DNA from: a virus
DNA: 64,000 bases
IMG/VR virus record: IMGVR_UViG_3300031965_000007
Location: 27,793 to 91,792 of that record
Direction: 5' to 3' (one strand)
Part shown: piece after piece, positions 1,684 through 64,000 of the stretch
How positions within the stretch are numbered: position 1 is the first letter of the stretch
How the letters are laid out: every line of letters starts with the position of its first letter
Program-made: the position numbers and the translations under genes
Notes under the pieces: generated by a model
The model's database searches: none
What the model was told of the DNA's origin: nothing
Seen by the model: only the letters and a program-made list of their open reading frames with translations

Positions 1684-2056
1684 ACAATCATGCAAAGACG
1701 CTGCGGCAAGGTTCAGGTCAGCGGGCTGGAACGTAAGGGCTGTTCGGACCAGGTACAGCTGGAACCTAGCCGCGATCACAAAGGAAGATCGGCAGATCTT
1801 CTCCGACACCGAGAGCGACGTCACACGCTGGATTGCTGGCGACATGATCGCCCGCTTGGCTCAGTCGACGGCTAGCGACATCTCGTACTTGGCAGGCTAT
1901 GCAGACGCCACAAAGGACGTGGTTCGGTATCTGCGCTCTGCCGACGTGATTGATTCAGGGATCACAGCCAGCCAGTTCGCGCAACTCGTTGCCTCTCGTA
2001 TCGAGAGCGGCGTACACCGACCGACGATCCTTGCCGCGGCCGAACACGATGGCTGA
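1676..2056 (+). CDS. hypothetical protein
   Basis: GGAG RBS; tiles with neighbours. Confidence 0.65.
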   Translation: MDEQSCKDAAARFRSAGWNVRAVRTRYSWNLAAITKEDRQIFSDTESDVTRWIAGDMIARLAQSTASDISYLAGYADATKDVVRYLRSADVIDSGITASQFAQLVASRIESGVHRPTILAAAEHDG

Positions 2057-2267
2057 ACCGCTATCACCGTACCAGAAGATCATTCGAGCGATGCGAGGTG
2101 CGCGCGGGCTGACTCTTACGCGAGAGGAGGTCCTTCAGCTCTCGATGGACGACGCGATCGAATCCTTAGCTGACAACGATTGCGCTGATCAAGGGAGGTG
2201 CAACCGCTGCTACCGACTTTTCGGTCTGTCCAAGAATCGATGCAAGTGCAAAGTACGAGGAGAATAG
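2049..2267 (+). CDS. hypothetical protein with C-terminal Cys cluster
   Basis: tiles the operon; CNRC...CKC. Confidence 0.6.
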   Translation: MAEPLSPYQKIIRAMRGARGLTLTREEVLQLSMDDAIESLADNDCADQGRCNRCYRLFGLSKNRCKCKVRGE

Positions 2268-2270
2268 ATC

Positions 2271-2636
2271 ATGAAGCTTTGGGCGAAAACAGAAGAGTTC
2301 AGCGAAGGCAAGTTCTTGGTGGTGCGCAGAGATGGTACGATCCCTGCCTGGCCGCACTTCGTGATGGGTGCGCGAGATCCTGCCGTACCACCTGCACTTC
2401 GCGCGTACGCAGACGCTGCGAGCGACTTGGGTTACGATCTGGAGTACGTGCAGAGCATACGAGATCTTGCAGACGACTTTGACAGGTACAGGGAGCAGGA
2501 AGGCGCAGGTGACGCCGACGCGGCCCCGCATCGAGAAGATGCGCAAGACGTCATTGACGCCATGAGAAGCGTTCGCAAGAACCAACTGATCTGCACTTCC
2601 ATCAAAGTTCGCACTTCGCGTAACGAAGGAAAGTAG
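2271..2636 (+). CDS. conserved-looking phage hypothetical protein
   Basis: GAGGAG RBS; KFLVVRRDG...FVMGARDPAVPPALRAYA motif typical of a widespread small phage family. Confidence 0.75.
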   Translation: MKLWAKTEEFSEGKFLVVRRDGTIPAWPHFVMGARDPAVPPALRAYADAASDLGYDLEYVQSIRDLADDFDRYREQEGAGDADAAPHREDAQDVIDAMRSVRKNQLICTSIKVRTSRNEGK

Positions 2637-2646
2637 CCGCGATCAA

Positions 2647-2892
2647 ATGACGGTCAAGGCAACTTTCCGCGTCGTGCACTTCACAAAGTGTGATCGGTAC
2701 GTCGCAATGGCATGGAACTATGACGAAGCGGTTCTGATCAGCACCGTTCCGCACCCAACCTACACCGAGGCGAGGCAAGACTTGCAGGAGACCGCTGCTT
2801 CTCTTGGTGTTGAACTTCAGTGGTTCGACGGCTCGTACAGGTGCGGTGGCGAGGGCTACCCGATCCTCAGCATTGCGAGCGAGTTGGCTTGA
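2647..2892 (+). CDS. hypothetical protein
   Basis: ORF tiling on + strand. Confidence 0.6.
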   Translation: MTVKATFRVVHFTKCDRYVAMAWNYDEAVLISTVPHPTYTEARQDLQETAASLGVELQWFDGSYRCGGEGYPILSIASELA

Positions 2893-2901
2893 AAGGCAGA
2901 A

Positions 2902-3168
2902 GTGATGCGAGAACAGGCTTGGACAAGCAAAGGCAAGTGGGTCGGAGAAGGTGATCCGCCACCAGCCTCTCCTGCTCTTTCGGTTCCGCACGAACCGTGC
3001 GAGATCGAGAGGTGCGGCGTCTTCGTATGCGCTTGGTGTCAGCGCGCAGTACCTTGGTGCTTCGGCGCATCGAGCGGAGACGACTTCGAAGATCTGCTCT
3101 GCAACGACTGCTGGTGTGATCGGTACCCTACACCAACCGAGCAAGACGCGGCGTTGGCACGAGGCTGA
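2902..3168 (+). CDS. Cys-rich hypothetical protein
   Basis: CAWC...CNDC motifs; AAGG upstream. Confidence 0.6.
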   Translation: MMREQAWTSKGKWVGEGDPPPASPALSVPHEPCEIERCGVFVCAWCQRAVPWCFGASSGDDFEDLLCNDCWCDRYPTPTEQDAALARG

Positions 3169-8820: not shown

Positions 8821-9281
8821 AAGTGGTCTGTTCTATGCCAGGCTGCCCGAACGAGAAGGCGGCAACATGCTGGATCGAGAAATGCGCGCGGTCGTTGTGC
8901 CAAGAGCACTCAATGTCGCATGGCGTCATGGTCGTTTGCCCAGAACACATCTTCCGGATCAGGCAGGCAGCGAGTGACAGTTTGCTACCACCAGAAGACG
9001 AGGAAGAAGACGATGCGAAGGTCGTGCAGAACTGGACGCCGCAGCAGAGACGTCGTCTGCACGCACGGCTCGACAACATGCTCGAGAGCGGCGACCGCAT
9101 TTTCTTGATCGCCTTAGGGCGGAACAAAGACCACACCGAGATCATGCTCGAACGCATGATTGGCAGGTTCCAGCGAACAACGCCGATCGAGATGCTAGGC
9201 GCGTTGACCCGCGCCTTGCACGACTACCAGAAAGACCTCGACGCGGATTCTGTTGTGGAGGAGATTCCGGATGAAGACTGA
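8817..9281 (+). CDS. Zn-finger (B-box-like) hypothetical protein
   Basis: CSMPGC...C...C...LCQEH...CPEH. Confidence 0.7.
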   Translation: MKVVCSMPGCPNEKAATCWIEKCARSLCQEHSMSHGVMVVCPEHIFRIRQAASDSLLPPEDEEEDDAKVVQNWTPQQRRRLHARLDNMLESGDRIFLIALGRNKDHTEIMLERMIGRFQRTTPIEMLGALTRALHDYQKDLDADSVVEEIPDED

Positions 9282-10371
9282 TCAGCAGATGGAGCCAACA
9301 CTTCTCGACGCACTTGAGACGGCGCTCGGGTTGATCTCGAACGCGTTCGAAGGTGACTGGGAGAAGGCGCCTCCCAACTGGCGCGCTGCGGCTGAGAGAT
9401 GGCGAGACGACTTCATTCGTATCTGTCGCAACGAACCGAACACGGATAGGCTCGGCATCTTGCCGCTGTTCTTCGAAGGTGGGTCTTCGCTCATCTGTGC
9501 CAGCATTGGTGCAGCACCTACCGGCATGCCAGAGAACATCGCTCTGCAGCATACCGACGACAACGGGAAGAAGACGATCACCTTCTTCAAGCCTGTCGAG
9601 ACGAAGACCCAGTATGGTGGTATTCGGCGTTTCCGCGTGGTGCGCGCAGAGCAGACCGGGCAGATACCTAGAATGGTGGCTCAAGGCGTGGTCTTCAGCG
9701 ATGGCGCTGTCTCGCTCCACTGGTGCTCGGAGGTTCGATCGACAACAGCCTACGACAGCCTAGAGAACTTCGAGAAGATCCACTTGCACGACGGTACGAA
9801 CCTGGAGTGGGAGGACAGGATCTGTTTTTCGTGCGGAGCCACCTTCTTTCGCGATCAACCAACCACCAACAACTGGTGCAGTGCGTGTGGTGCGGATGGC
9901 GGTAAGGATCCGTACTACGGAACACGCCCCGACCCAAGTCTCGGTAGGTGGTCGAAGGCGATCACTCTCAACACCGTGCTAGAACAGAAGGAGACCAGTA
10001 TGAGCAAACCGCGAGAGATCACGCAGCACCACACGAATGAAGCGAACAAGCGAATCAAGATTCTCGCCGACGAGCGTGACTCAAACAACGGCTGCACTTC
10101 TCACCGCTACGACATGCTCATCGACGACACAGGCGAGATTGTCGAGCTGCCGTTTCAGCACGGGCCGATCGCAGAGGTTGGCGTCAATGGCGTGACCAAC
10201 GAAGCCCTGCTCGCCATTCTCATCGATCGCATGGAAGGATTCCAGACCTCGCCATTCGCATGCCTGGAGAATGGCGAAGCTCTGATCGCTCTGCAAGACG
10301 CGCTCGCGTGGCTCGAGCGTCGCACCAAGGCGCGTGAAGCGCGAGGCGTAGAAGGGACGCACACGGTATGA
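9271..10371 (+). CDS. multidomain fusion with C-terminal Tad1-like (Acb2/Tad1 family) anti-defence sponge domain; internal start at 10000
   Basis: FQHGPIAEVGVNGVTNEALLAILIDRMEGFQTSPFACLEN..AL..L..AL.WL.RR...R..RGVEGT matches the Tad1 consensus as I recall it; internal AAGGAG-ATG at 10000. Confidence 0.82.
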   Translation: MKTDQQMEPTLLDALETALGLISNAFEGDWEKAPPNWRAAAERWRDDFIRICRNEPNTDRLGILPLFFEGGSSLICASIGAAPTGMPENIALQHTDDNGKKTITFFKPVETKTQYGGIRRFRVVRAEQTGQIPRMVAQGVVFSDGAVSLHWCSEVRSTTAYDSLENFEKIHLHDGTNLEWEDRICFSCGATFFRDQPTTNNWCSACGADGGKDPYYGTRPDPSLGRWSKAITLNTVLEQKETSMSKPREITQHHTNEANKRIKILADERDSNNGCTSHRYDMLIDDTGEIVELPFQHGPIAEVGVNGVTNEALLAILIDRMEGFQTSPFACLENGEALIALQDALAWLERRTKAREARGVEGTHTV

Positions 10372-15800: not shown

Positions 15801-16271
15801 ATGCCGGGTGTGATCAGGATAGGTGGCAGGATCTACGCCGTTACGCGTGACTTCCGGAGTGAGTTCACACGAGCAGGCGATGCACGACCCTTGGCCACCA
15901 ACGAGCGCAACGACAACAATCCGAGCGACGGGACACCCATTGAGCCCGACTCCCCCGACTCACCGTTTCGAGTCGGCACGCCTTATCACGACGTGCACGA
16001 AGACGTGTGGTACAGGGTGGTCGCTCGGCTGAACATCGCTGAAGGCTGGGGTACTGCGGGTTTCTGGATCGCGCGCTGGGGTTGCTTTTACGGCGACGTC
16101 CTCAAGTTGGTGCGCATGGGCTGGCTCGATGCCGCTCTCGAGCACGGCAGCGCGGTGAAGAGGTTTCGGTGTCGTGATGAGATCCGCGTGCTGCGATGGA
16201 TGGAGGAGAACGCACCGCCTCCCTCACCTGCGCCTGTGCGGCGCAAGAAGGCTACCAAGAGGCGCACATGA
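15801..16271 (+). CDS. hypothetical protein
   Basis: ORF tiling; ATGA overlap. Confidence 0.65.
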   Translation: MPGVIRIGGRIYAVTRDFRSEFTRAGDARPLATNERNDNNPSDGTPIEPDSPDSPFRVGTPYHDVHEDVWYRVVARLNIAEGWGTAGFWIARWGCFYGDVLKLVRMGWLDAALEHGSAVKRFRCRDEIRVLRWMEENAPPPSPAPVRRKKATKRRT

Positions 16272-16714
16272 TCATCGCTATCGACTTTGACGACACGCTG
16301 GTGGAGCAGAACGAGGACTACCACGACCTTGAGACGCCCCTCGAGTTCAAGCCAGGTGCCAAGGAAGCAGTGCTCCAGCTGAAAGCAGCCGGACACACAC
16401 TGGTGCTCTTCAGTGCACGTGCCAACAAGGCACTGAGGCAGGATTGGGGTCTCAATCCGCTGTGGCGCAACGGTCTTGTGCCGTTCGACCGTTATAGGTG
16501 GGCAGCGTCGTTGGTGACGAACATCCGCAGGTACCAACAGATGCTCACTTTCATCGAAGCCGAGGTGCCCGGCGTCTTTGCTTACGTTGACGACGGCGAG
16601 CAAGGTAAGATTTCGGCTGACGTCTACATCGACGACAAGGCCTTACGCTACGGCCAGTCTGTTGGCTGGCCCAAGATTGCTGTAGCCTACGGTGAGCCAG
16701 AAGGAGGCGAGTAG
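16268..16714 (+). CDS. HAD-superfamily hydrolase
   Basis: motif I IAIDFDDTL, motif II LFSAR, motif III/IV K.SADVYIDDKA. Confidence 0.85.
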   Translation: MIIAIDFDDTLVEQNEDYHDLETPLEFKPGAKEAVLQLKAAGHTLVLFSARANKALRQDWGLNPLWRNGLVPFDRYRWAASLVTNIRRYQQMLTFIEAEVPGVFAYVDDGEQGKISADVYIDDKALRYGQSVGWPKIAVAYGEPEGGE

Positions 16715-17107
16715 ATGGGATCTCGACACAGACACATACGGAAGTTTGCGAACGGGCAGATGACGCCCGAGGAGTACCACAGCAAGTTCGCCTTCCCACC
16801 GCACGCCAAGTGCCAGGCTTGTCCGTCCAGGCCGATGACACGTGTGATCATCTTGATGGAGATGAAGGAGGCACGCAAGAATCCGCTCATCGATCAGTGG
16901 ATGCTTGTAGATCCGGCGTCGTTCATGTCCAACGTCGTGCAGATCAGGGGCAGCGACGGCAAGCCTACTCCCTACTGGCGCGTGTCGGTCGTGTACGCTT
17001 GCAAGGCTTGCACCCCTGCCCTCGAGAAGCAGGCAGCGAAGGCGCCTTCGCACTGCATCGTCGAGATCAACCACGGACCTGACCCAAAGAATAGGATCGT
17101 GGCATGA
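16715..17107 (+). CDS. Zn-binding hypothetical protein
   Basis: GGAGG RBS; CQAC...CKAC. Confidence 0.75.
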   Translation: MGSRHRHIRKFANGQMTPEEYHSKFAFPPHAKCQACPSRPMTRVIILMEMKEARKNPLIDQWMLVDPASFMSNVVQIRGSDGKPTPYWRVSVVYACKACTPALEKQAAKAPSHCIVEINHGPDPKNRIVA

Positions 17108-17256
17108 AGAAGGGCGACGATCTAAAAAGCCGCGTCGCCAACAAGCGCGTCGCCAACAAGCTCAAGAACATGCCTGGCGCGTTCAAACCTCCGAAGGCAC
17201 CGAAGGCCGTTCAAGCAACACCGACCAAGCAGAGTACAGCAGTCGATACCAGCTGA
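17104..17256 (+). CDS. small basic peptide (50 aa)
   Basis: not in ORF track; ATGA overlap; contains a 15-bp duplication (RVANK x2). Confidence 0.5.
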   Translation: MKKGDDLKSRVANKRVANKLKNMPGAFKPPKAPKAVQATPTKQSTAVDTS

Positions 17257-17302
17257 CGCCAAAACGCCGCACGACTTCTTCTGGTAGAAGTAGCGATCAA
17301 GC

Positions 17303-17488
17303 GTGGGGGCGAAGACCATGATGTTGCGCAGTAGGATGGTTCACGCACTCGTCCGGTGGGGAGGCGAGGAGCGCGCAGAGCTTGCAGAGAAGAACGACGG
17401 CGAGATCCGGTCTATGGTCGACGACCTGAAGATGCGGCTCGTAGTCGACGACCCTGCTCAAAGAGACGATTGCGATCGCGAAGACTGA
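17303..17488 (+). CDS. small hypothetical protein
   Basis: ORF track; fills gap; start uncertain. Confidence 0.4.
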   Translation: MGAKTMMLRSRMVHALVRWGGEERAELAEKNDGEIRSMVDDLKMRLVVDDPAQRDDCDRED

Positions 17489-17555
17489 CGTACCGTCTTG
17501 CTGCTCGGTAGGTCTGGGTGTACGGTGTGCGGATCGACGCACTGAGGAGACTCCT

Positions 17556-17699
17556 ATGCCCGAGACCAAGAAAGGTCGCAAGATCAAGAAGGCAATGAAG
17601 GACAGGTATGGCAAGAAGAAAGGCGAACAGGTCTTCTACGCCTCTGCCAACAAAGGCACGATCGCTGGCGTGCACGAAAAGAAGACGAGGAAGAAGTGA
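17556..17699 (+). CDS. conserved small basic phage protein (MPETKKGRKIKKAMKDRYGKKKGEQVFYASANKGTI)
   Basis: not in ORF track; GAGGAG RBS; YGKKKGEQVFYAS.NKG motif typical of small basic proteins near head genes. Confidence 0.8.
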   Translation: MPETKKGRKIKKAMKDRYGKKKGEQVFYASANKGTIAGVHEKKTRKK

Positions 17700-17992
17700 C
17701 TTGGACTGTTCGCGGTCTTCGAGCCTCTTACGTCGTTTACATCGACGGCGAAGAGAAGATGTCGACCACTAGCCGATACGGCACTGCCCGACGTCCCGAA
17801 GGCGCAAAGAACCATCGCAAGAGTGCGGTCGGCGAAGCCTTGGTAGTGATGCGCGCGCATCCGACAGGGAAGTTGTGCCAGATCGTCAAACGCTACCCCG
17901 TGCAAGCTCACAAAGATCACGTTCTCTACACGTGGCGGAACGTTGACGGCGCATGGCGCCTGGCCCCCAAACACAAGGAGCTTGCAGCATGA
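17696..17992 (+). CDS. hypothetical protein
   Basis: GTGA/ATGA coupling; true start may be 17759. Confidence 0.55.
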   Translation: MTWTVRGLRASYVVYIDGEEKMSTTSRYGTARRPEGAKNHRKSAVGEALVVMRAHPTGKLCQIVKRYPVQAHKDHVLYTWRNVDGAWRLAPKHKELAA

Positions 17993-18366
17993 GGGAGTGG
18001 GTCGCGAAGCGTGTTGCGAGGTGGGCAGGCACGTCGGCAGAAGGCGGCTCGCTTCGCGCACCGACAGCCAACCTCGGCATACGCATTCAAGAGAAAGACG
18101 GATCCGAGGTTGTGCTGCTACCTCACGGCGACAGCTTCGACCTGATCAGTGGTAAGGCGGAGTATTACGTTGTACATATCTCGCCCAAGGCCATGATGAA
18201 GCTTGCTTGGTTCACCATTTGGACGTGGTGGATCAAGGGAACGTGGTTCGGCTTCAAGCTCGACGCGTGGAACTGGGCAATGTCAGTGGCGATTGAAGAG
18301 ACGATGTACAGGAGGCTTCGTGCCGACGAGCAAAGAAAAGCGGCGTCGCCTCGCCGTGTTCGCTGA
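17989..18366 (+). CDS. hypothetical Trp-rich protein
   Basis: AAGGAG RBS, ATG 17989. Confidence 0.65.
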   Translation: MREWVAKRVARWAGTSAEGGSLRAPTANLGIRIQEKDGSEVVLLPHGDSFDLISGKAEYYVVHISPKAMMKLAWFTIWTWWIKGTWFGFKLDAWNWAMSVAIEETMYRRLRADEQRKAASPRRVR

Positions 18367-18802
18367 TAAGGCAAACTACGTTGATCCACCAGAGCCTGTC
18401 ACGCTTGGCGACGTTCTCTACTCCCCTCCCAACCTGGATGACTCCAGGAAGATGTGCCAGAACTGCATCCATTGGCTGCGATCTGGCGCTCAGTGCGAGC
18501 TGATGCTTTCGGATGTCGTGGTGCCGCCAGATGCGATCTGCGGCTACCATGTGTTCGGAACACCTAGGCCGGTAGGACATAGCGAATACTACGCCAGGGA
18601 AGGCTTTCTTGCGATCGACCCAGCACTCTCTGGGTTTGAGCAAGTGAGCGGTGGCACGAGCTGTGATCGATGCAAGTTCTACAGCTCTGCACGCTCGGCC
18701 AACTTCGGTAAGTGCTCTGCGGTGATCGACGACGAAGGCGCTTCTGCCCTCGTCGCAGATAAGGGGTGCTGCGCAAGGTGGAGAGATCGCGATGGCGGCT
18801 AG
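18320..18802 (+). CDS. tandem HiPIP-like 4-Cys domain protein
   Basis: AGGAGG-GTG start; CQNC..W...C.L....V.P.A.CGYH and CDRC.FY...C.AV....V...GCC.RW. Confidence 0.65.
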   Translation: MPTSKEKRRRLAVFADKANYVDPPEPVTLGDVLYSPPNLDDSRKMCQNCIHWLRSGAQCELMLSDVVVPPDAICGYHVFGTPRPVGHSEYYAREGFLAIDPALSGFEQVSGGTSCDRCKFYSSARSANFGKCSAVIDDEGASALVADKGCCARWRDRDGG

Positions 18803-19718
18803 AAAGCGCTCTACACCTCAGACGAAGATGCAGAATGCGACGATCGCTCACCGACGCACAATGGATCGTGTGTTGGACAGGAGCGTGACGTCTGGTGTGA
18901 AGGCAGACTTCAACGACGAGATGGCTCGGCTTGAAAAGGATCTACGCCGTGCCTTGCGCAACCGCTCCACGATCAAGTCTACGCGCGGCGAAGTTGCAAA
19001 CGTCGCCCGCGTGGTCACTGCGCGCATGAAAGCCTTTGCCGACCACGCCGCTGCGCGCATGGTTGACACGACTGCGGAGACGCAAGCCGAGGCAGTTCGC
19101 TCTCTCGCCAAGTTCCTACACACCGTGCGCCCGAGCGGCACGAAGCTCGACGACGAATCGGCATATCGAGCGATCCTACGGAAGGACACGCGATCTCTGT
19201 CTGCGCAGAGGAGAGCGTCAGGTAAGGCGCTATCCAAGTCGATCGTGTCGCGCATGAAAGAGGTCCTTCACACAGAAAACCTCGAAGGCATTACCTCTCG
19301 TGATCTCGAGCGCCTTACCGTAGATACGGTTCAGCAGCAGTGGTGGCAGATCGATCGCACGATCAGGACAGAGAACAGCGTCTCATTCAATCAAGCCCAG
19401 TACAACGCCTTCCTCGAGCTTGGTGACGAAGCTCGAGGCATCTTCATGCGCTGGACCGAGATGGTGAACGACATCACAGGCCTTCCAATGGACACGCGCG
19501 TAGGCAACGATTCGTTGGTGCTGCACGGTCAGCTTGCGCCGCCTGGCGGTTCGTTTGTCATGCCGCCGCACCCTCTCGCGCCTAAAGCCATGGTCGGTAA
19601 GATCTGGTACGCTCCGCCTAACCGACCTAACGATCGAGCTGTACTCACGCCGTGGGCACCTGGTCAAGGTGTGGACGGTTGGCAGTGGCTGAACAGCCGC
19701 CGCATCAACATTGCATAG
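18792..19718 (+). CDS. minor head / head morphogenesis protein (Mu gpF / SPP1 gp7-like)
   Basis: IRTE...FN, D.RV..DS..LHGQ, PPNRPNDR (variant of PPxHPNCR). Confidence 0.8.
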   Translation: MAARKRSTPQTKMQNATIAHRRTMDRVLDRSVTSGVKADFNDEMARLEKDLRRALRNRSTIKSTRGEVANVARVVTARMKAFADHAAARMVDTTAETQAEAVRSLAKFLHTVRPSGTKLDDESAYRAILRKDTRSLSAQRRASGKALSKSIVSRMKEVLHTENLEGITSRDLERLTVDTVQQQWWQIDRTIRTENSVSFNQAQYNAFLELGDEARGIFMRWTEMVNDITGLPMDTRVGNDSLVLHGQLAPPGGSFVMPPHPLAPKAMVGKIWYAPPNRPNDRAVLTPWAPGQGVDGWQWLNSRRINIA

Positions 19719-22964: not shown

Positions 22965-24368
22965 ATGCCCGACTTTTCAGTAATCCTTCAGAGTCCCGAA
23001 GTCCGACAGATCGTCCAGGAGAACATCCTGGAGCGCGCCTTCCACGACGCGCTCTTTCCTCGGCTCATGTTCCGAGCAGAGGCGTCCCCGGTCCCGTGGC
23101 CGGCAGGCATCGGTGACACCCAGATCTTCAGCGCGCCCGGTCTCATCCCTGTGGATGCCCGTCCGCTGACGCCTGGCACCGATCCTGACCCGGTGACGTA
23201 CCCGATGGAACAGTGGACCGCCCAGCTCCAGCAGTACGCTGGTACGGTCGACACGCACATGCCGACCAGCATGCTGGCGATCATCAACCTGTTCCTGCGC
23301 AACGCACACCAGCTCGGCATGCAAGCGGCGCAGACGCTCAACCGTGTCGTGCGCAACCGGATGTACGCCGCTGCCCTTTCTGGGTGGACGGTGGCAGACG
23401 GTGCACAAAGCGCAGTGACTGTGCTCCGCGTCAAGCGCCTCAACGGGCTAACGCGTGCGCGCAACCCGTCGATCACAGGCGCTTCTCTCGTGCGCTTCGA
23501 TGCAGTCTCCTCGTCGAACCCGCTCTCAGTGACCATTCGCGACACGGCGCCGTCCGACGTGACGCGCAACGTGATCGGATTCACCCCAGATGTGCCTGGT
23601 GACGAGTTCGGTCCTGGCACGATCACGCTCGACGTGGCTGTCACGGTGGACGATCGCGCTTTCGTTTACTCAGAGGATGCAACTCAGATCATCCGAGTAG
23701 GCGGCGGCAACAAGGTCGACGACGTTGGCTCCGCTGATCTTCCCACGCTCTCCGACATCCGGTCAGCGGTCAGCGGTTTCTGGCAACAGAACGTACCGGA
23801 GCATCCGGACGGCCGCTTCCATTGCCAGCTCGACCCTGTCTCGCAGGGGAAGGTCTTCGCAGATTCGGAGTTCCAGCGCCTGCTCACGGCGTTGCCGGAT
23901 CACTACATGTACCGCCAGTTCGCGCTCGGCGAGCTGCTCAACACGGTCTTCTACCGCAACTCGGAATGCCCAGTTGCTGAGACGGTCGTCGGCGGGCTCA
24001 CGGCGCAGTACGATCAGCGCGACCCCTTCGTAGGGGAGCTGTACAACACCGGCGTGGCCACTGGCACCAAGATCCACCGCATGCTCTTCACGGCGCAAGG
24101 CGGCATTATGGAGTATTACTCCGACCTACAGGCGCTGATCACGGAAGCTGGCATCACCGGTTCTGTGGCAGATCCTCGCATCGTGAACAACGGAATCGAG
24201 ATCTTCTCGGAGCGTATCCAGATGCTCATCCGAGCGCCGTTGAACCGCTTGCAGGATCAGGTCGCAACGAGCTGGAAGTTCATCGGCGACTGGCCTGTGC
24301 GTACGGATGCTGCGGTTGGCAGCCGAGCACGGTTCAAGAGGTTCATCACGATCGAACACGGCGAGTGA
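22965..24368 (+). CDS. major capsid protein
   Basis: 467 aa after scaffold; PLTPG..P....EQW...LQQY (N4-gp56-like), insertion domain, PLNRLQD.V..SWKF. Confidence 0.88.
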   Translation: MPDFSVILQSPEVRQIVQENILERAFHDALFPRLMFRAEASPVPWPAGIGDTQIFSAPGLIPVDARPLTPGTDPDPVTYPMEQWTAQLQQYAGTVDTHMPTSMLAIINLFLRNAHQLGMQAAQTLNRVVRNRMYAAALSGWTVADGAQSAVTVLRVKRLNGLTRARNPSITGASLVRFDAVSSSNPLSVTIRDTAPSDVTRNVIGFTPDVPGDEFGPGTITLDVAVTVDDRAFVYSEDATQIIRVGGGNKVDDVGSADLPTLSDIRSAVSGFWQQNVPEHPDGRFHCQLDPVSQGKVFADSEFQRLLTALPDHYMYRQFALGELLNTVFYRNSECPVAETVVGGLTAQYDQRDPFVGELYNTGVATGTKIHRMLFTAQGGIMEYYSDLQALITEAGITGSVADPRIVNNGIEIFSERIQMLIRAPLNRLQDQVATSWKFIGDWPVRTDAAVGSRARFKRFITIEHGE

Positions 24369-24620
24369 TCCGTCCTTAGGGACGGGCAACGCCCGTGCAA
24401 GCTCATACATGTTGATGGCTGCGGGCACTTTCTTGGGTCTTGGTGTCCGCAGCCTTTGACGCGTTTTGATCCTTGCATCGGGCTTGGGCAGCAGGCGCGT
24501 CGGAACGTGTAGAGCAACAGGACCAAGGCTCGCCACCTTGTAAATCCAGGCGATAAAAGCCCTCGCGTTCTACAATGGTTCGGCGCCCTGCGTGCCCTAC
24601 CCCATCCGAAGGAGATCACA
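24369..24620 (+). ncRNA. candidate structured RNA / attenuator downstream of MCP
   Basis: several stems, including GGCTGCGGGCAC (24417-24428) / GTGTCCGCAGCC (24443-24454). Confidence 0.4.
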
Positions 24621-27316: not shown

Positions 27317-29374
27317 GTGTCCGGCTTCACTCGACGCTTCAACTATTACCCAGGTACCGAAGTCCTCACCCAGATCGAGGGTGTGAGCATCGTCGACCTG
27401 CCGCCTCCCGGCTCGATCTCAGGTGTTGCGACGGGCGTGGTTGCGGCAGTCGGCGAATGCGCAGACATGACCTATGCCACGTCCGTCGACACCAGCGGCA
27501 ATGTGTCGACGAAGATCGTGCCGCAGGAGGTCCTCAGTGCTCAAGACCTGATCAACAAGTTCGGCGGATTCGACGAAACACTCGGAGAGTTTGGCGTCAG
27601 CGGCGGCAATCTGTACGCCGCTCTGCGCAGCAAGAGCTTCTCTAGGCTGATTCTCGCAGCCGTCAATCTCTGCTCGGCCAAAGGCGCGCGCGTGTTTCGC
27701 CAGCTACCTGTGTGCCGATCTCAAACGGATGCGGCCGCAGTCGTTCCTGTGCTTGGCGGCACAGTGTCTGCAGGTCGAGAGTTCCGCTCAGGCGCAGGTC
27801 GGCTGAAGATCGGTGCCAGGCAGGAGTTCACTGCCAACGAGCCCATCACATCCGGAACCGCCGGTTCCTGCACTTCAGGTGCTTCGGCAGTGACGCAGGA
27901 GTTCGAGTCAGGCGCGCTCGACTGGACAACGATCACACGCCCTGACGGCACGCTGGGGGCTGCCAAGGGTGACATCTTTGTTCTCGGGTACAACAATGGT
28001 GGCGCGATCGCGCCTGTTGCTGAAGGCGGCACGTACCGTGTGGCGTCTACACCTGCTTCCGGCACCACACTGACGATCGAGCGCCTTGACGGCGCAGCGT
28101 TCGAGTTCACTTCGCAAGCAAACGTGCCTTGGCGTCTGCACTTGGCCAGCGACGCAGATACGGCACTTGTAATCGTACCTGGGGCAGCTGTTCCAGGTGG
28201 CTATGCAGCGGCAGACGCAGGCGGTTACACCGTCCCAATCCGGCCGATCACTGACTCTGCAGGCGCGCAATCTGACGGTACGTACTCTGCCGGCACTGTG
28301 CTCGCACCGGCAGTCGTGCCAGACGCAGCAGACGGCGACTCGTGGGATCCGCTGTCCGGTCTCGGCGCCAGAACCATCGTAGGTGGCACAACCGCTTTCA
28401 CGGCTGCTACGCAAGGGATCAACCCTGTAGCGTCGGCAACCATCGACGCGCTCTACGCCACTGCGATCGACGCGTTCCTCGCAGACGAAGATCCGGTTCG
28501 CGACGCCAACCTCATCGTTGCAGCACGGACGAGTGCGAACAACCGAACCAAACTCCGCAGTCACGTACTCGAAGCAAGTCAGCGCGGCCGCGGCAGGATT
28601 GCTGTGATCAGCCCTGACTTGGCACAACAGACGACCACGGCAGTAACCGCGACCGCATCTCCTGGTGTAGGGGCAACTCGCGCAGAGCGTGTCGTGTACG
28701 CGTGGCCAGGCGAGCGTGTCTACGTGCAAGAGGCCGTCGGGTTCAGGCTGAAAGTCGCGACTGGCTTGACCACAATCGACGGCATCCTCGATCTCGCTGC
28801 GGACTTTCGCGCTGCAAGCGTCATGTCCAACTTGGCGCCTGAGCGCAACCCTGGCCAAGCAGCTGAGCCGGTTCCTACGGTCATGGCAACTGTCGTCGGC
28901 ATTCAGCGAGGCGTTTCCGGTCTGGGGATCAACGAGTACGTTGCGCTACGTGCAGCCGGCATCATGGCGATGCGTATCGACAGAAGGTCAGGCCCGATCT
29001 TCCAGAGCGGCGTGACATCGTCTCTCACCAGCGGGCAGAAGAACATTTTCCGCCGGCGCATGGCAGACTTCATCCAAGACTCGCTCTCGGAGCGCCTGGT
29101 TGGGTTCTCCAAGCTGCCGCTCACCAACCAGCTCAAGGACGGCGCCGTGGGTGAGGTCGACGCCTTTCTGCTCGAGCTGCAGAGTCCGAACAACCCCGCT
29201 GCACAGCGGATCAACCAGTACCAAGTCGACGACAAGAGCGGTAACACGCCCAATCTCGAAGCGAAAGGCATCTACGTGATCATCACTCGTGTGCGCCTCA
29301 CGCCGACTGCGGACTTCATCGTTCTCCAGACAGAGATCGGCGAAAACGTCGTCATTACCGAGCAAGCTGCCTGA
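27317..29374 (+). CDS. tail sheath protein
   Basis: IEGV.IVD N-terminus, KFGG, RRRMADFI, DKSGNTP, VRLTPTADFIVL C-terminus. Confidence 0.9.
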   Translation: MSGFTRRFNYYPGTEVLTQIEGVSIVDLPPPGSISGVATGVVAAVGECADMTYATSVDTSGNVSTKIVPQEVLSAQDLINKFGGFDETLGEFGVSGGNLYAALRSKSFSRLILAAVNLCSAKGARVFRQLPVCRSQTDAAAVVPVLGGTVSAGREFRSGAGRLKIGARQEFTANEPITSGTAGSCTSGASAVTQEFESGALDWTTITRPDGTLGAAKGDIFVLGYNNGGAIAPVAEGGTYRVASTPASGTTLTIERLDGAAFEFTSQANVPWRLHLASDADTALVIVPGAAVPGGYAAADAGGYTVPIRPITDSAGAQSDGTYSAGTVLAPAVVPDAADGDSWDPLSGLGARTIVGGTTAFTAATQGINPVASATIDALYATAIDAFLADEDPVRDANLIVAARTSANNRTKLRSHVLEASQRGRGRIAVISPDLAQQTTTAVTATASPGVGATRAERVVYAWPGERVYVQEAVGFRLKVATGLTTIDGILDLAADFRAASVMSNLAPERNPGQAAEPVPTVMATVVGIQRGVSGLGINEYVALRAAGIMAMRIDRRSGPIFQSGVTSSLTSGQKNIFRRRMADFIQDSLSERLVGFSKLPLTNQLKDGAVGEVDAFLLELQSPNNPAAQRINQYQVDDKSGNTPNLEAKGIYVIITRVRLTPTADFIVLQTEIGENVVITEQAA

Positions 29375-29377
29375 ACC

Positions 29378-29407
29378 TTGAGCTTGCCTCGGTAACGGTG
29401 CTAGACT
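29378..29407 (+). promoter_or_regulatory. candidate sigma70-type promoter upstream of tail tube
   Basis: TTGAGC-18 bp-TAGACT with extended TG. Confidence 0.35.
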
Positions 29408-29529
29408 CGGCACCGTGACCTGGAGGCAGGCTCTGTGGTCAGCAGTCGCACCCTCTGCAAGAGGGGATAGGGCTCGCGGATTGGGGTGACACCCAGTTCG
29501 CGGGCTTTTCGCGTTGGGGAGGAAATCAC

Positions 29530-29961
29530 ATGGCCCAGAGGATCAAAGGACAAGAGGTAGAGGTGTTGATGGTCGTCAACGGTCAGCCGAAGACGAACAT
29601 CACGACCGTTCGTAACTTTGAGGTCACGCTTCAGACAGAGATCCTCTCCGAAGGTTACCTCGGTGAGACGACGGAGAGGAAGGACTCGATCTTCAAAGGC
29701 ATTGCTGGAAAGATCGAGATTCATTTCGACAACCAGGAGATCATGCGCGTCTTCGAAGAGATCGTGAACAAGGCGCGCCGTCGTACGCCAGGCACAAAGA
29801 TCAACATCAAGGCGACGTTGAACTTCCCAGGCGGCCAGCGCCCCAGGATCATGATCAACGACGTGGAGTTCGGCGCGCTACCGATGAGCTTCGGCTCGCG
29901 CTCAGACTACGGTAACGTGAGTCTCGACTTCGAGGCCAGCGAGCCGTCGTTCCTGTACTGA
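29530..29961 (+). CDS. tail tube protein
   Basis: 143 aa after sheath; GGAGG RBS; beta-rich, YLGE motif. Confidence 0.8.
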   Translation: MAQRIKGQEVEVLMVVNGQPKTNITTVRNFEVTLQTEILSEGYLGETTERKDSIFKGIAGKIEIHFDNQEIMRVFEEIVNKARRRTPGTKINIKATLNFPGGQRPRIMINDVEFGALPMSFGSRSDYGNVSLDFEASEPSFLY

Positions 29962-58875: not shown

Positions 58876-60093
58876 CTACGACTCCTTGCGTAGTACGACA
58901 ATGCGTTCTCCCCAAGGCGTCGGCGCAGGCTCAGGCAACCAAGGAGACGAGAGTAGCCAGATCACTGTGCACCAAGAAGGTCGATGATCCGGGAACCTCC
59001 CCTCAGCGTCCGTTGCGAACACAACGATGTTCGGCCGCGGCCTCATTTTCTCGATAGCCTTGAACGCAGGTCGGAAGTCTGTGCCGCCGCCTCCCTTCAT
59101 CGCCGCTGCCATTTCTTTGACACTCCGCAGCTTCGACACGCCGTGCACCTCTGCGTCGCACGAGACGAAAACGACTTCGGCAACCTCACGAAGGATTGCC
59201 TGTGCCTCGGACAGCGTTGAAGCGATCTGGCTCGAGGTCATGCTCATGCTAGTGTCTTGCACGAGCGCAACAAGAGGTATCGGCGCGACGTACGACCGCA
59301 CAACTGGGATACCTGGCCCGAAGCCCAGCGCGCCTTGCCTACGGCTGACGCGTGTGTAGGTGAGATCGACCTGACCGGCTTTCCACCTCGCAGCACGGAT
59401 CGCTGTGGAGCGCAGCCGTTGCTGCCAGGATACCTTCGGTGGCGCAAGTTGCTCTTGGCAGTCTCGCAGCAAGCTAGCCGGAACAGAGCCAGGTTTCGTG
59501 CGCGCGTGATCGACAACAGCCATCGCCACAGCTGCCCGCATGCTCGAGAGCAGCGCTTGTCGATCAGCCGGTAGTGTCGGGCCGCTCTCGTCTGGTAGAG
59601 GGTTGCCTGCGCCAGACCCGCAACACTTCGGCTTTGGATCAGGCTTAGACCTGCTTGCCTGCAGACCGAGGAAGTAGGTCTCTGCGAGCTGCCCGTCTGG
59701 CATCCCAAAGTGCCTAGGCTGAATGTCGGTGTCTAGGATCTTGAACTTCATTGCGAGCAGGTCGTCGTTCAGCTCAGCGTCCGAAGCCCAACCCCAGAGA
59801 TCTTGCGTAGCGGCGTCTGCGACACCGATTGCGTGCGCGCGTCGGTGGTGCTCGCGCCTGATGTGCTCGGCCTCGTGTACGATCGCAGTCGCACAGTCGT
59901 CAAGCGTCCACTGGCGCAAGATGATCTCCTCGTTGTAGAGCATCACACCGTCCTTCGTGACGCCGGTTCCGACGCCTTCTGGCAACGCAGAGCTGGGCCA
60001 GAAAATGAGCGCGTAGATCGCGTCTGCAAGGAACGGCGCCTTCCGCAGCGCACGCGCTCGCGCGTTCGACAGCACGAGGTTAGCCTTGCTCAC
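58876..60093 (-). CDS. metallopeptidase-VWA domain protein (DUF2201-like)
   Basis: HEAEH...H..R; CGSG; MIDAS DTSMSM; GGGGTDFRPAF; ATD. Confidence 0.9.
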   Translation of the reverse strand: MSKANLVLSNARARALRKAPFLADAIYALIFWPSSALPEGVGTGVTKDGVMLYNEEIILRQWTLDDCATAIVHEAEHIRREHHRRAHAIGVADAATQDLWGWASDAELNDDLLAMKFKILDTDIQPRHFGMPDGQLAETYFLGLQASRSKPDPKPKCCGSGAGNPLPDESGPTLPADRQALLSSMRAAVAMAVVDHARTKPGSVPASLLRDCQEQLAPPKVSWQQRLRSTAIRAARWKAGQVDLTYTRVSRRQGALGFGPGIPVVRSYVAPIPLVALVQDTSMSMTSSQIASTLSEAQAILREVAEVVFVSCDAEVHGVSKLRSVKEMAAAMKGGGGTDFRPAFKAIEKMRPRPNIVVFATDAEGRFPDHRPSWCTVIWLLSSPWLPEPAPTPWGERIVVLRKES

Positions 60094-61289
60094 AGCACGA
60101 ACCCCGCAGCTTCCATTGTAGGGCGCAAACTCGCGAGCACTGACTGCGCAGTGCTACCGTCTGTCGGGCGGTACCCGTTGGACGAAGGAGACCTGGCTAC
60201 CTTGCGCGCAGCCTGCATCGCAATGTCCGGCACACCTGCGTCGATCACGCCACGCAGCACACGCCAAAACGACACGAGTCTCTTCTTGCGATCGTGGCAC
60301 TCAGGATCCGCAACGAGCAGCGAACAAGACGACAGGATCGCGTACGTGATGTCGAGGCGTAGTGGGTCGTGCTCAAACCCCGTGCGCCCGTCGAGCACGT
60401 CTTCGGCTTTCGGTAAGTTCAGGTTGGCGCGGTAGACCAAGAACTCCTCTGCAGCGCCGCTACCGACGAAGCCACCTAGCAGGTGCGTCTCGAGATCCTG
60501 TACACCGTGTACCACTGACGACGCGAGCGCGTAGGTCGCCATCGTCCACGTCCTACGCGACGGCCACGCGCGCGCGAGATCAGGCGAGTCGGCTGCAGGC
60601 TTCTTGTGCATCCACAGCCGCTTGAATCGGAGGAAAGTTGTGATACTCGTTCGCGCGTTGTCGAACGCGCGCGGCCACGCTTTCAGCACACGCCTTTCTT
60701 CGTTGTCGATGTTGTACTGACTTTCGACCGCCTGCGGCAGCGGATTGCGCGGATCGATTGCGTGCATCCAATCCGACCACTCGTCCAGTGATGGCGCAGT
60801 CCAGTTGATGTGGCAGAAGCGATTGGCTGCTGCCGCAGTCATCTCGTACCCACCTGATCCTTCGCCAGGGGGATTGCCTGCAGCGAGCACGCGCACGCCT
60901 GCACCCAAGTACGACGCACCGATGCGGCGATCAAGCGCGAGCCCGAGTAGCGCAGGCTGTACAGCTGGCGGTGCGTGCGGAATCTCGTCTACGAAGACGA
61001 TTCCGCGGCCATCATGCCGCTCGATGTCTAGCACCCAGTCAGGCTCAGGGTACGTCATGAAGTAGCCACCGCTAGGCTTCTTCTCGGGCATCGGTGTGAC
61101 GCCAAACGCGCCTTCACCGCGCTCGCCAGGTGAAAGTACTTCCAAGTGAAAGCCGTAGTCGGCAGCCACTTGCCTCACCATGTCGCTCTTCACGACGCCT
61201 GGATCGCCCCAGAACATCATCGGCAGGCCCCACCCTTTTGACGTCGGCGTAAAGAGAGCCGCCTTGATGATCCGCTTCATGTCGTCCAT
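60090..61289 (-). CDS. MoxR-like AAA+ ATPase
   Basis: AGGAGG RBS; WGDPGVVKS, VFVDE, AAGNP, ANRF.H, PSRRTW. Confidence 0.9.
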   Translation of the reverse strand: MDDMKRIIKAALFTPTSKGWGLPMMFWGDPGVVKSDMVRQVAADYGFHLEVLSPGERGEGAFGVTPMPEKKPSGGYFMTYPEPDWVLDIERHDGRGIVFVDEIPHAPPAVQPALLGLALDRRIGASYLGAGVRVLAAGNPPGEGSGGYEMTAAAANRFCHINWTAPSLDEWSDWMHAIDPRNPLPQAVESQYNIDNEERRVLKAWPRAFDNARTSITTFLRFKRLWMHKKPAADSPDLARAWPSRRTWTMATYALASSVVHGVQDLETHLLGGFVGSGAAEEFLVYRANLNLPKAEDVLDGRTGFEHDPLRLDITYAILSSCSLLVADPECHDRKKRLVSFWRVLRGVIDAGVPDIAMQAARKVARSPSSNGYRPTDGSTAQSVLASLRPTMEAAGFVL

Positions 61290-61338
61290 GCAGTATCCTC
61301 CTTTTGCAACGCGCTAGCTTTGTGCGCGCGCGCTTTTT

Positions 61339-61515
61339 TTAGCTGTCATCCCAGCACTTGTGTTCGCACCACGCGCAGAGGTGATCGACGACGCCGGTGT
61401 AGAACACTTTTGCGTCAGTGCTGCAGGTGCATCCTACGAGCTCCTTCTCCCACGCCAAAACGTCAGACGGTTTCTGTTCTTCCTCTACGGTGATGACGAT
61501 TCGGTATCGTGCCAT
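61339..61515 (-). CDS. small hypothetical protein
   Basis: AAGGAG RBS before ATG 61515. Confidence 0.6.
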   Translation of the reverse strand: MARYRIVITVEEEQKPSDVLAWEKELVGCTCSTDAKVFYTGVVDHLCAWCEHKCWDDS

Positions 61516-61563
61516 GCGCAACTCCTTCCCGTGCCTGTCGTAGCGACGTGCGATCACAGTCGC

Positions 61564-61592
61564 TTGACAAGCTGATCAAAATGTGCTAAACG
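61564..61592 (+). promoter_or_regulatory. sigma70-type promoter driving the candidate ncRNA
   Basis: TTGACA (61564-61569), 17-bp spacer, TG-c-TAAACG (61587-61592). Confidence 0.55.
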
Positions 61593-61593
61593 C

Positions 61594-61800
61594 GTGGGCC
61601 CTGGCAACGAAGGCCACCCCGCTCCGATCGCCTTCCGAGCTTCGCCAGAAGCGACGGACAGGAGATGCCAGTCTCTCCTCGAAGAGGTCTTAGCGGAGCG
61701 AGGCTTTGCGAGCGACAAGCGCCGCAGGCGCTAGCGTTGGCAGAACGAGTTTGTCTGGCGCCTTCGGCGCTGCTCGCTTCGCGAGCAAAGACTTTCTTTG
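61594..61800 (+). ncRNA. candidate highly structured ~200-nt ncRNA
   Basis: at least eight stems, loop-loop complementarity, terminal hairpin + T-rich tail; no credible ORF. Confidence 0.6.
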
Positions 61801-61804
61801 ATCC

Positions 61805-61841
61805 AAAAACGACAAAAGCGCCACATCGCGTTGATGGGCGC
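61805..61841 (-). terminator. rho-independent terminator for the minus-strand operon
   Basis: minus strand GCGCCCATC-aacgc-GATGTGGCGC then TTTTGTCGTTTTT. Confidence 0.6.
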
Positions 61842-61867
61842 CGTGCGGCCTGAACACGAACAACGGA

Positions 61868-62107
61868 TCAGAACAATCCAAGCAGCCTGCGCTCGCGCTT
61901 GCAGAAGCTGCGGTACTCGCGTTCGCAGCGTAACGCCAGCTTCTCTTGTGAGTACAGCCCGAGAGATGGCGGCAGTATGACCGCAGCGTCTGGCGTCGCG
62001 CGATAAGCCGGGAAGATTTCACCTGTGAGGTGATTCGGGACGTCGAGCCAGTAGTCGACGTCTACGCGATCACCGTCTTCGGTGATGAAGGTGGCGCACT
62101 GTCTCAT
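61868..62107 (-). CDS. hypothetical protein
   Basis: ATGA overlap with 62104-62706. Confidence 0.6.
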   Translation of the reverse strand: MRQCATFITEDGDRVDVDYWLDVPNHLTGEIFPAYRATPDAAVILPPSLGLYSQEKLALRCEREYRSFCKRERRLLGLF

Positions 62108-62706
62108 CGCGCCTTCACCATCGACAACGACTTGCGGCCTGACGTCAAGCGTAGCCCGCTCTTGCGGGTCTTGACCTTCACCGCCATGTCGGGGAACGGC
62201 TGGCTGTACGCGCAGCCTATCGACGACGCCTGGCTGATCGCGTATGAGTGCGATCGCGAAGGCGGTCCTACCAGCGTGCAGCCAGTGGTGTCGGCGTTCT
62301 TCGGCAGGTCGAGAAACATGTTGCCGCACCGCCATCTGGAAGCGTCGATCATGCTAGAGGGAGGCGGGATGGATGATGTTGACAGAAGCTCGAGCTTCAG
62401 GGCGAAGCCTCGCTTGGCGCTGCCGTCTACGACTTGGCCGTCGCCTGCTTGCCAGCACGACGTTGGCACGAACTCGCCTTCATCGCACTCGCCGGTTACC
62501 ACTGTGTGGCTCTCCCAGGAAGAGCCGCCGCGGCCGTCGATCGTCAGCCAGAACCGAAACGTGACGTCTGTCGAGCAATGCAGTCCGACGTGGCTGGTTG
62601 ATCGCTGGCCAGAGAAGATGCCTACGACCTCTTCTGGTAGCGCTGTTGGCGCAGCGCCAGCGAGGACTGTTAGCGCTACAGCTGCGAAGAGCGCACGAGT
62701 GATCAT
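62104..62706 (-). CDS. secreted Cys-containing hypothetical protein
   Basis: AAGGAGG RBS; signal peptide MITRALFAAVALTVLAGA. Confidence 0.7.
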   Translation of the reverse strand: MITRALFAAVALTVLAGAAPTALPEEVVGIFSGQRSTSHVGLHCSTDVTFRFWLTIDGRGGSSWESHTVVTGECDEGEFVPTSCWQAGDGQVVDGSAKRGFALKLELLSTSSIPPPSSMIDASRWRCGNMFLDLPKNADTTGCTLVGPPSRSHSYAISQASSIGCAYSQPFPDMAVKVKTRKSGLRLTSGRKSLSMVKAR

Positions 62707-62864
62707 TTCTTCACCTCCTTGCAGGCGTACTTGAGTGCAGTGATTCTGCAGGCTAGCTCGTCGAGCAGAACTTCGTTGCGCGCGACGTCATGCACAGCGA
62801 CGTAGCGGTGTAGAGCGTGCACTTGCTCGATCAGGGTGCGAAGCTCGTTGTCGATGCTGAACAT
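62703..62864 (-). CDS. small hypothetical protein (53 aa)
   Basis: not in ORF track; overlaps both neighbours (TGATG / ATGA). Confidence 0.6.
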   Translation of the reverse strand: MFSIDNELRTLIEQVHALHRYVAVHDVARNEVLLDELACRITALKYACKEVKK

Positions 62865-63655: not shown

Positions 63656-63997
63656 TCACTTCTCCTTCTCTTCCAAAGAGTTGCCTTCCTCGTCTGTGAT
63701 CTCACCTTTGCGTCCTTGCAGCGCGCTACGCTCACGCAGTGTTGCGAGACCTGCGCGCAGGTTGAGGAGCCGCTCTGCGACTTCGCTCTGAAGCACGTCT
63801 CCTCCGAGGTAGGTGATCGCCACCTGCATCATGGATTCGTCGATCGTGCGAAAAGCGCCGCCTTGCTGGTGCCCGTCTAGGTAGGCTTTGCAGTAGGCCG
63901 CAGACGATGACTCGAAGCACATGTCGCGGCGGTTGTAGCCGTCAGTGAAGCCGTCGAAGTAGGCTTTGCGGAACACGCCGATGTCGATCAAGGTCAT
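63656..63997 (-). CDS. hypothetical protein (GF.DGY...Y.DG..G motif)
   Basis: ORF at the window edge. Confidence 0.6.
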   Translation of the reverse strand: MTLIDIGVFRKAYFDGFTDGYNRRDMCFESSSAAYCKAYLDGHQQGGAFRTIDESMMQVAITYLGGDVLQSEVAERLLNLRAGLATLRERSALQGRKGEITDEEGNSLEEKEK

Positions 63998-64000
63998 GAC

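Follow-up and report, generated by a model that had tools for sequence, protein, structure and literature searches.

A conserved promoter-like site precedes an unconserved, hairpin-rich non-coding stretch in a soil phage genome

Introduction

The oop RNA of phage lambda and the sar RNA of phage P22 measure 70-80 nt; a clear intrinsic terminator closes each, and each overlaps one particular target, a gene or a ribosome-binding site (RBS). For a cis-antisense RNA, sequence conservation is not required. For the PeSL cassettes of T4-type phages, Arbiol et al. (2010, PMC2839356) describe a strong host σ70-like early promoter joined to stable stem-loops and placed in variable genome regions. Mini-hairpins of the GCGNAGC type have been reported at the priming sites (oric) of G4, St-1 and α3, at ssiA and ssiB of RSF1010, and at the promoters of the N4 virion RNA polymerase (vRNAP) (review PMC13037366). 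Features of each of these systems recur in the locus analyzed here, which lies in a 64,000-nt stretch of the IMG/VR virus record IMGVR_UViG_3300031965_000007 (hereafter the window; positions are counted from its first nucleotide). At 61564-61800 on its plus strand a promoter-like site is followed by ∼200 nt of hairpin-rich, non-coding DNA.

An earlier reading of this interval from its letters (the original prediction) had proposed a stand-alone RNA with a consensus promoter and a kissing-loop fold. Our computational analysis points instead to a non-coding unit or leader that is driven by the promoter and would function through the act or the place of transcription, a reading to which we give a probability of about 0.5. 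On present evidence, the unit defines no new structured-RNA family.

Results

A promoter-like site is conserved opposite the ATPase operon

The soil-derived phage record comprises 91,792 bp, and the window is its final 64 kb. Relatives were found by scanning sequence collections with a back-translated motif of the MoxR-like AAA ATPase encoded beside the element (60090-61289, minus strand); exact-pattern and single-protein searches of IMG/VR returned no close relative. Homologues of this ATPase occur on contigs of ∼87-95 kb, and family members P0005-P0012 are 50-55% identical. Identity to the window protein is highest for L108 (69%), followed by the L116 group, L101, L112 and L091 (52-54%) and by L003, L111 and L121 (36-39%). 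The comparison rests on six informative relatives, two of which are truncated.

The −35 hexamer, TTGACA (61564-61569, plus strand), is a 6/6 match and lies inside the palindrome GCTTGACAAGC. A 17-nt spacer ending in TGTGC separates it from TAAACG (61587-61592). The extended −10 region, TGTGCTAAAC(G) at 61582-61592 on the same strand, contains a conserved 10-mer that occurs once in the 92-kb genome, with one intergenic copy even when ≤1 mismatch is allowed. The strings and positions that the original prediction gave for a plus-strand TTGACA-N17-TAAACG arrangement within a minus-strand block were confirmed.

In the relatives, the conserved format is TTGnnn-N11/12-TGTGCTAAAC. The 10-mer is exact in five lineages (the window, L108, the L116 group, L112 and L091) and is found in the weaker form TGCTAAAC in L101, and TTG stands at the same −35 spacing in six loci. 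The block is always located upstream of the ATPase gene and on the opposite strand, with nhmmer E-values of 1e-11 to 6e-14 (5e-4 for L101). The motif is absent from the distant relatives L003, L111 and L121. The DNA around the conserved islands is unalignable, and pairwise and multiple alignments recover only the promoter, a short downstream motif and a terminator tail. In the species-representative genome collection there was no locus for homologue P0002, whose contig came from the metagenome collection, and L121 (DASZFS010000280.1, 107,832 bp; 39% identity) was the sole ATPase relative. This contig is binned with a metagenome-assembled genome of the Vicinamibacterales (Acidobacteriota); it is either a phage contig placed in the bin or else weakly suggests the host phylum.

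The alignment of six loci also revealed a conserved block just upstream of the −35 hexamer (61540-61563, plus strand), which reads GTGCGATCACAGTCGC in the window and is of the GTGTGATTACGG type in the relatives (GTGYGRTTACGG). It may be an operator or may belong to a diverging promoter that serves the ATPase operon. A further operator-like element was noted in two relatives: in L116 (4560-4620), the small gene before the ATPase has the palindrome CCTTACTATGTAGTAAAG in its 5′ untranslated region, and a half-site, ACATAGTAAGG, is found at 5420-5445 of L101 in the opposite orientation to L116. The element, which looks like an operator from its sequence, is absent from the window.

Only one other site of the same format is present in the phage genome, CTTGACAAGC-N12-GTGCTACTTG (GTGCTA) at genome position 1681, so that the CTTGACA...GCTA format accounts for two promoters in the whole 92 kb. 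This second site is located 75 nt before a GGAGG RBS and an ATG, and heads a 74-kb plus-strand block. Directly upstream of it, genome positions 1400-1720 form the most hairpin-dense stretch (10 perfect hairpins per 250 nt, fold z ∼−3.8, with long ACGTGCGCGCACGT-type palindromes), which is probably the main divergent control region. No RNA polymerase gene was found among the phage proteins of the 91.8-kb record, whose largest open reading frame (ORF) encodes a family-A DNA polymerase of 862 aa; therefore, the phage must rely on host RNA polymerase. The position-specific conservation in six loci, together with the twin heading the plus-strand block, argue that the putative σ70-type promoter is used. 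A reading of TGCTAAA as a T4 MotA box was considered and rejected, as there is no −10 at the required distance.

The nearest relative carries plus-strand genes behind the site

Behind the conserved promoter of L108 come a hairpin-rich leader of ∼310 nt (z −5.3), an RBS (GGAAGGA) and an ATG at position 1897. The cargo (1897-3027) begins with a gene for a 273-aa protein; a second gene, of 90 aa and preceded by an RBS of its own, comes next, and a bidirectional terminator follows. Both homology and codon-position GC place the coding sequence on the plus strand. Hence, this clade would use the block as a promoter for the plus strand, with RNA polymerase passing through a hairpin cluster of this kind. 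In the lineages that have no ORF behind it the promoter is intact, and therefore promoter activity or occupancy appears itself to be under selection. The site would double as a slot from which accessory genes can be expressed, occupied in L108 and vacant in the window.

The C-terminal domain of the 273-aa protein belongs to phrog_2428 and is 53% identical to the end of the window ORF 9253-10371. The protein also gave a match to the Acb2/Tad1 hairpin domain that is below threshold (E 2e-4, 21.9 bits; cut-off 27). The window ORF itself codes for a 372-aa, paralogue-like protein with the same phrog_2428 domain. The two proteins may belong to an anti-defence sponge family.

The downstream stretch has no coding signal and matches no known RNA family

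Scanned with Rfam 15 at gathering thresholds, whose families include 6S RNA, riboswitches and GOLLD/ROOL, neither the whole window nor any of six related loci gave a match. A permissive scan of 61300-62000 yielded only noise, with a best E-value of 1.4 at a score below a quarter of the gathering threshold. ARAGORN detected no tRNA or tmRNA, and a blastn search with the region gave no match among 50,697 phage records (GenBank). The stretch had been said to resemble no tRNA, tmRNA, RNase P RNA, signal recognition particle RNA or known ribozyme, and the negative Rfam scan bears this out.

Over the 350-600 nt behind the promoter, the window, L116 and L101 show no codon periodicity, and the ORFs of the window have no peptide in common with those that follow the promoter in five relatives. 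The ORFs 61665-61853 and 61690-62022 in particular have neither a coding signal nor a shared peptide, in agreement with the earlier view that the stretch is non-coding. A small protein gene would have to use one of these two frames (the first on the plus strand, the second on the minus strand) or the plus-strand frames 61706-61801 or 61594-61734. Such frames are open, and AGGAG precedes the ATG at 61665, but it abuts the ATG with no spacer. The third-codon-position GC of the small ORFs is 0.46-0.62, compared with 0.70-0.79 in real genes, and their codon-position GC profiles are wrong. They have no Pfam or PHROG match, and ORF 61690-62022 is an alternative frame of a real 79-aa gene. We consider a small protein gene barely credible.

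The stretch is dense in hairpins, and its proposed tertiary fold is not recovered

The hairpin-rich stretch, a non-coding spacer or RNA of ∼200 nt, occupies 61598-61800 on the plus strand; transcription is predicted to start at ∼61598. For the 207 nt from 61594 to 61800 the minimum free energy (MFE) is −96.5 kcal/mol, and comparison with dinucleotide shuffles gave RNA z-scores of −2.68 for the plus strand and −2.46 for the minus strand. With DNA parameters the values were −3.63 and −3.33 (complement). The density of perfect short hairpins is 5 per 250 nt, compared with 1.4 on average across the genome. In GC-corrected folding energy the stretch ranks ∼8th among the 200-nt windows of the 92-kb genome; it is clearly structured, and other gaps are more so. 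The strongest plus-strand outlier genome-wide is 29309-29558 (z −4.4), just after the 685-aa ORF 27317-29374, and a multi-stem region after the capsid gene, 24359-24608, is also an outlier (z ∼−3.2, plus strand).

The description of these ∼200 nt as largely pairable was accurate: every listed hairpin is present where it had been placed, and folding exceeds that of shuffles. GTGGGCC (61594-61600) pairs with GGCCAC (61612-61617) with one G bulged, and CGCTCCG (61620-61626) pairs with CGGAGCG (61694-61700). The small hairpins (loops in brackets) are GCTTC[GCCA]GAAGC, GAGA[TGCCAG]TCTC, CCTC[GAA]GAGG, AGCGCC[GCA]GGCGCT, GCGCC[TTC]GGCGC and TGCTCGC[TTC]GCGAGCA. The last two, adjacent and perfect with a GCTTCGC/GCGAAGC core, span 61758-61787 and are the only TTC-loop hairpins of the genome with stems of at least 5 bp. 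The helices proposed earlier cannot all coexist: their strings are all there, but three bases of CTTTGC/GCAAAG are needed by the TGCTCGC/GCGAGCA hairpin as well, and the two cannot both form fully. Together, the proposed helices sum to −64.6 kcal/mol, which is 32 kcal/mol weaker than the MFE fold.

The kissing loops proposed in the original prediction fared less well. CTGGCA (61601-61606) is indeed complementary to TGCCAG (61666-61671), and CGCCAG (61643-61648) to CTGGCG (61755-61760). However, the MFE fold places CTGGCA inside a stem and not in a loop, and it contains no loop-loop 6-mer pairing. The CTGGCA/TGCCAG pair is a 6-mer picked post hoc that competes with the MFE stem and has no homologue to be tested against, and the second pair includes stem bases. 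These results bear on the hypothesis of a structured RNA that would act in trans through a defined tertiary fold, with kissing loops or a pseudoknot, for example as a decoy, sponge or ribozyme. A promoter followed by non-coding, hairpin-rich sequence is compatible with it, loop-loop complementarity of 6 nt is rare in shuffles folded in the same way (0-13/300, depending on the flank allowed), and the sub-threshold Acb2/Tad1 match of the L108 cargo hints at an anti-defence slot. Against this, neither the window nor the relatives have an Rfam match, no homologue can be aligned, and the 5′ junction domain has no counterpart in the relatives. We find such an RNA highly improbable, and none of our results backs the suggestions of a new RNA class, a ribozyme-like RNA or a decoy against host defence. 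A CsrA-sponge function was discarded, since the number of GGA motifs is, by estimate, close to that expected from composition.

A short motif and a hairpin type persist in the relatives

Even L116 and L112, with near-identical promoters, show no sequence conservation downstream of them. Covariation has no carrier, because the downstream sequences of the relatives do not align. A covariance model of the proposed fold (R1) found no full-length match in any syntenic locus; its best partial matches (E 0.006-0.1) were to generic tandem triloop hairpins in the syntenic gaps. The specific fold put forward earlier is therefore not a conserved RNA by this measure.

The sole sequence motif common to the transcribed regions is AGCGGAGCGAGGC (61692-61705, plus strand), of the (GAGCG)n or tandem GC-GNA-GC type. 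In an unbiased k-mer enumeration, the AGCGGAGCGARGC motif was present in 6/7 loci, including the distant L003, and in 0 of 20 shuffles, with a background of 0.001 per kb. No common local fold was found around it. A type of hairpin also recurs: TTC-loop hairpins are present in the syntenic gaps of L101, L116, L108 and L003, and the GC-clamped hairpins with 3-nt loops are ordered alike in the window and in these four loci, with GAA loops proximal to the promoter and TTC loops distal to it. The sense strand folds better in the four full-length loci, with sense/antisense z-scores of −2.7/−2.5, −5.3/−4.3, −4.3/−0.4 and −4.6/−3.9. In L003 (ATPase identity 37%), the gap upstream of the ATPase gene measures 600 nt (2000-2600, on the strand opposite to it) and lacks the TGTGCTAAAC promoter. 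This gap, which includes long stretches of G and of C, has three consecutive GGC[GAA]GCC hairpins and then five with TTC or TGC loops, and it carries GGAGCGAAGC in the loop of a 12-bp hairpin.

Hairpins of this kind could act as DNA. The locus might be a replication origin or priming zone, in which a transcription-activating promoter lies beside very stable GCGNAGC-type mini-hairpins on both strands, with short repeats and A/T runs, and the phage primase or helicase would read these as single-stranded DNA. The hairpin excess is at least as strong under DNA parameters (z −3.6/−3.3), the perfect 3-nt-loop hairpins have GCGAAGC/GCTTCGC cores as at known priming sites (PMC13037366), and the ordered mini-hairpins occur on both strands in the window, L101, L116, L003 and L108. 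L116 has, in addition, A/T runs and a pair of direct repeats of 16 nt. Among the phage proteins are a DnaB-like helicase, a primase, a family-A DNA polymerase (PolA) and an SbcCD-like nuclease, but no RNA polymerase. On the other hand, the antisense strand of L116 has no excess structure (RNA z −0.4, DNA z −1.3), which fits an RNA or a one-strand feature better, and the hairpin cluster of L108 is plainly an mRNA 5′ leader. Moreover, the window contains neither iterons nor a clear AT-rich unwinding element, GC skew tracks gene direction only, and nothing ties the motifs to an initiator protein. An origin at this locus is, in our judgement, an unlikely but serious alternative.

The phage proteins also include a UvsX-like recombinase, an NAD-ligase and RusA. 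The subunits of the palindrome-specific, SbcD-/SbcC-like nuclease are encoded at 15872-19118 of the full record, in a genome that bears several perfect-hairpin clusters.

The element lies between two minus-strand operons

The plus-strand genes of the phage span genome positions ∼1.8 to 75 kb, and the minus-strand block extends from 47.7 kb of the window to the contig end. The element is contained in a 352-nt gene-free gap (61516-61867) within this block. On one side of the gap, the ATPase operon begins with a gene for a 58-aa Cys-rich protein (61339-61515, minus strand), whose ATG at 61515 stands behind the RBS GGAAGGAG and which is supported by its codon-position GC profile. The ATPase gene comes next, followed by those for a DUF2201/VWA protein and a PD-(D/E)XK nuclease.

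On the other side, the converging gene codes for 79 aa (61868-62107, minus strand; ATG at 62107). The 155-aa ORF listed here over-extends it, because only residues 77-136 of that ORF align to the L116 homologue, which starts there. The stop codon of a 200-aa gene (62104-62706, minus strand), whose product has a clear N-terminal signal peptide, overlaps the ATG of the 79-aa gene as ATGA. Codon-position GC in 62040-62400 favors the opposite strand (GC of 0.80-0.85 at one phase), and homology backs the minus frame. The plus-strand ORF 62030-62734, considered for its high third-position GC, was rejected: the minus frame is conserved (score 96 vs 29), the mirror frame has stops, and the minus-strand genes are coupled by ATGA, one of them with a signal peptide.

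The ends of the record (1-141 of the full record and window 63860-64000, i.e., genome 91652-91792) share ∼141 bp with one mismatch (tggtgccAgtc vs tggtgccCgtc). This repeat suggests that the genome, listed as linear, is circular, circularly permuted or terminally redundant, and therefore that the minus-strand block carries on across the contig end.

The upstream minus-strand operon ends at an intrinsic terminator (61800-61845, minus strand), formed by GGCGCCCAUC-AACGC-GAUGUGGCGC and then UUUUGUCGUUUUUGG. Its hairpin (61815-61845) is bulged and has 9 bp, and its tail, GTCGTYTTTGGWYC, is kept in L116 and L101. A separate terminator halting the converging operon just beyond the stretch had been predicted, and it was found. 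A search of IMG/VR with the terminator-tail pattern gave, besides L082, only chance matches in coding sequence. On the plus strand, AAGAC intervenes between the last hairpin and the U-rich run.

The presence of this real terminator next to the hairpins raises the possibility of an ordinary operon boundary, made of terminators or RNA-stabilizing stem-loops and of the operator or promoter of the ATPase operon, with no functional plus-strand RNA. In keeping with it, a second conserved block lies between the −35 hexamer and the next gene, the transcribed sequence is unconserved, and other multi-hairpin gaps (24359-24608, 29309-29508 and genome 1401-1650) rate at least as high. Yet most of the hairpins have no U-tract, and those of the window lie downstream of the minus-strand terminator and not before it. 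Furthermore, TTG and the 10-mer are kept at promoter spacing on the plus strand, L108 uses the promoter for plus-strand genes with RNA polymerase traversing the hairpin cluster, and in the relatives the sense strand carries more of the excess structure. We regard this alternative as unlikely but credible.

Discussion

The favored explanation is a promoter-driven unit that acts through transcription itself. A host σ70-type early promoter (CTTGACA, a spacing of ∼16-17 nt, and TGTGCTAAAC) would fire on the plus strand and oppose both flanking minus-strand operons. The transcript would then run into ∼200 nt of fast-evolving, hairpin-dense sequence, which extends to the rear side of the converging operon's terminator. 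Selection would retain the promoter, the short AGCGGAGCGARGC motif and a general richness in hairpins, and no particular fold. Its role is most likely exerted in cis, at the boundary of the first minus-strand operon and the ATPase operon, and candidate mechanisms are promoter competition with the control region of the ATPase operon, occlusion, collision, or antisense pairing with read-through transcripts.

Several observations weigh against this explanation. The −10 sequence TAAACG matches TATAAT at only 3/6 positions and does not have the usually invariant final T, and a σ70 scan calls no site here; the term consensus promoter used in the original prediction was too strong. The promoter call leans on conservation and on the tolerance for CTAnAn-type −10 boxes in GC-rich hosts, for example alphaproteobacterial ones. 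The conserved block could alternatively be bound by a protein or belong to the diverging promoter of the ATPase operon. No RNA run carries the stretch, and one DNA run (a soil metagenome, probably the source) does. No canonical plus-strand terminator that would fix the 3′ end and length of the RNA was found in 60500-62800. Since both strands fold nearly equally in the window, the strand cannot be read from structure here, and the cis mechanism is one that we infer.

A bolder hypothesis is that this soil-phage clade expresses, from one strictly conserved early promoter, a fast-evolving, densely hairpinned, trans-acting RNA of 200-340 nt that contains AGCGGAGCGARGC. We consider it decidedly unlikely. 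If true, the RNA could, for example, divert an RNA-binding factor of the host or the phage, as a decoy or sponge, or act in anti-defence, and it would occupy the slot in which a relative has a protein with a weak Acb2/Tad1-like domain.

If the promoter fires, the locus would be a compact case of a phage that keeps a promoter, and not a gene, under strong selection, leaving the product free to drift. It would also be a landmark for annotating a poorly known clade of ∼90-kb soil phages and for finding its variable cargo, since in a relative the same site is the entry point for accessory, possibly anti-defence, genes.

Comparison with known systems places the locus near several of them. Its GC-clamped hairpins with 3-nt GAA, GGA or GAG loops on both strands are like those of mini-hairpin priming sites. 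CCTC[GAA]GAGG and GGAGC[GAG]GCTTT are of the GNA type, as are GCGCC[GAA]GGCGC and TGCTCGC[GAA]GCGAGCA on the other strand, and GCGGAGCGAAGC consists of two overlapping mini-hairpin heptamers. The likeness to ssi and origin hairpins is one of sequence only. In contrast to those sites, the genome here is double-stranded DNA and the L108 cluster is located in an mRNA leader. A hairpin promoter of the N4 type was rejected because the phage has no virion RNA polymerase gene.

Unlike oop and sar, the locus has no plus-strand terminator-like site, and 61598-61800 lies between the terminator at 61800-61845 and the RBS of the 58-aa gene (∼61523, upstream of the promoter) and overlaps neither gene nor RBS, only intergenic read-through RNA; to overlap the 79-aa gene, the plus-strand transcript would have to read through past 61868. 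The resemblance to oop and sar lies in a host-type promoter embedded in, and opposing, an early operon, and in a predicted small non-coding transcript at an operon junction.

The PeSL elements are near-identical, many-copy repeats spread over hyperplastic regions of T4-like myoviruses and co-oriented with the genes that they flank. In our case there is a single locus, with no repeats of the hairpin part found within the genome, in a phage unrelated to T4. Promoter, hairpins and terminator adjoin one another here, but the promoter points against the neighboring genes. What the locus has in common with the PeSL arrangement is a putative host-type early promoter coupled to stem-loops, a near-twin of the promoter elsewhere in the genome, and accessory cargo that varies, the slot being filled in L108 and empty in the window.

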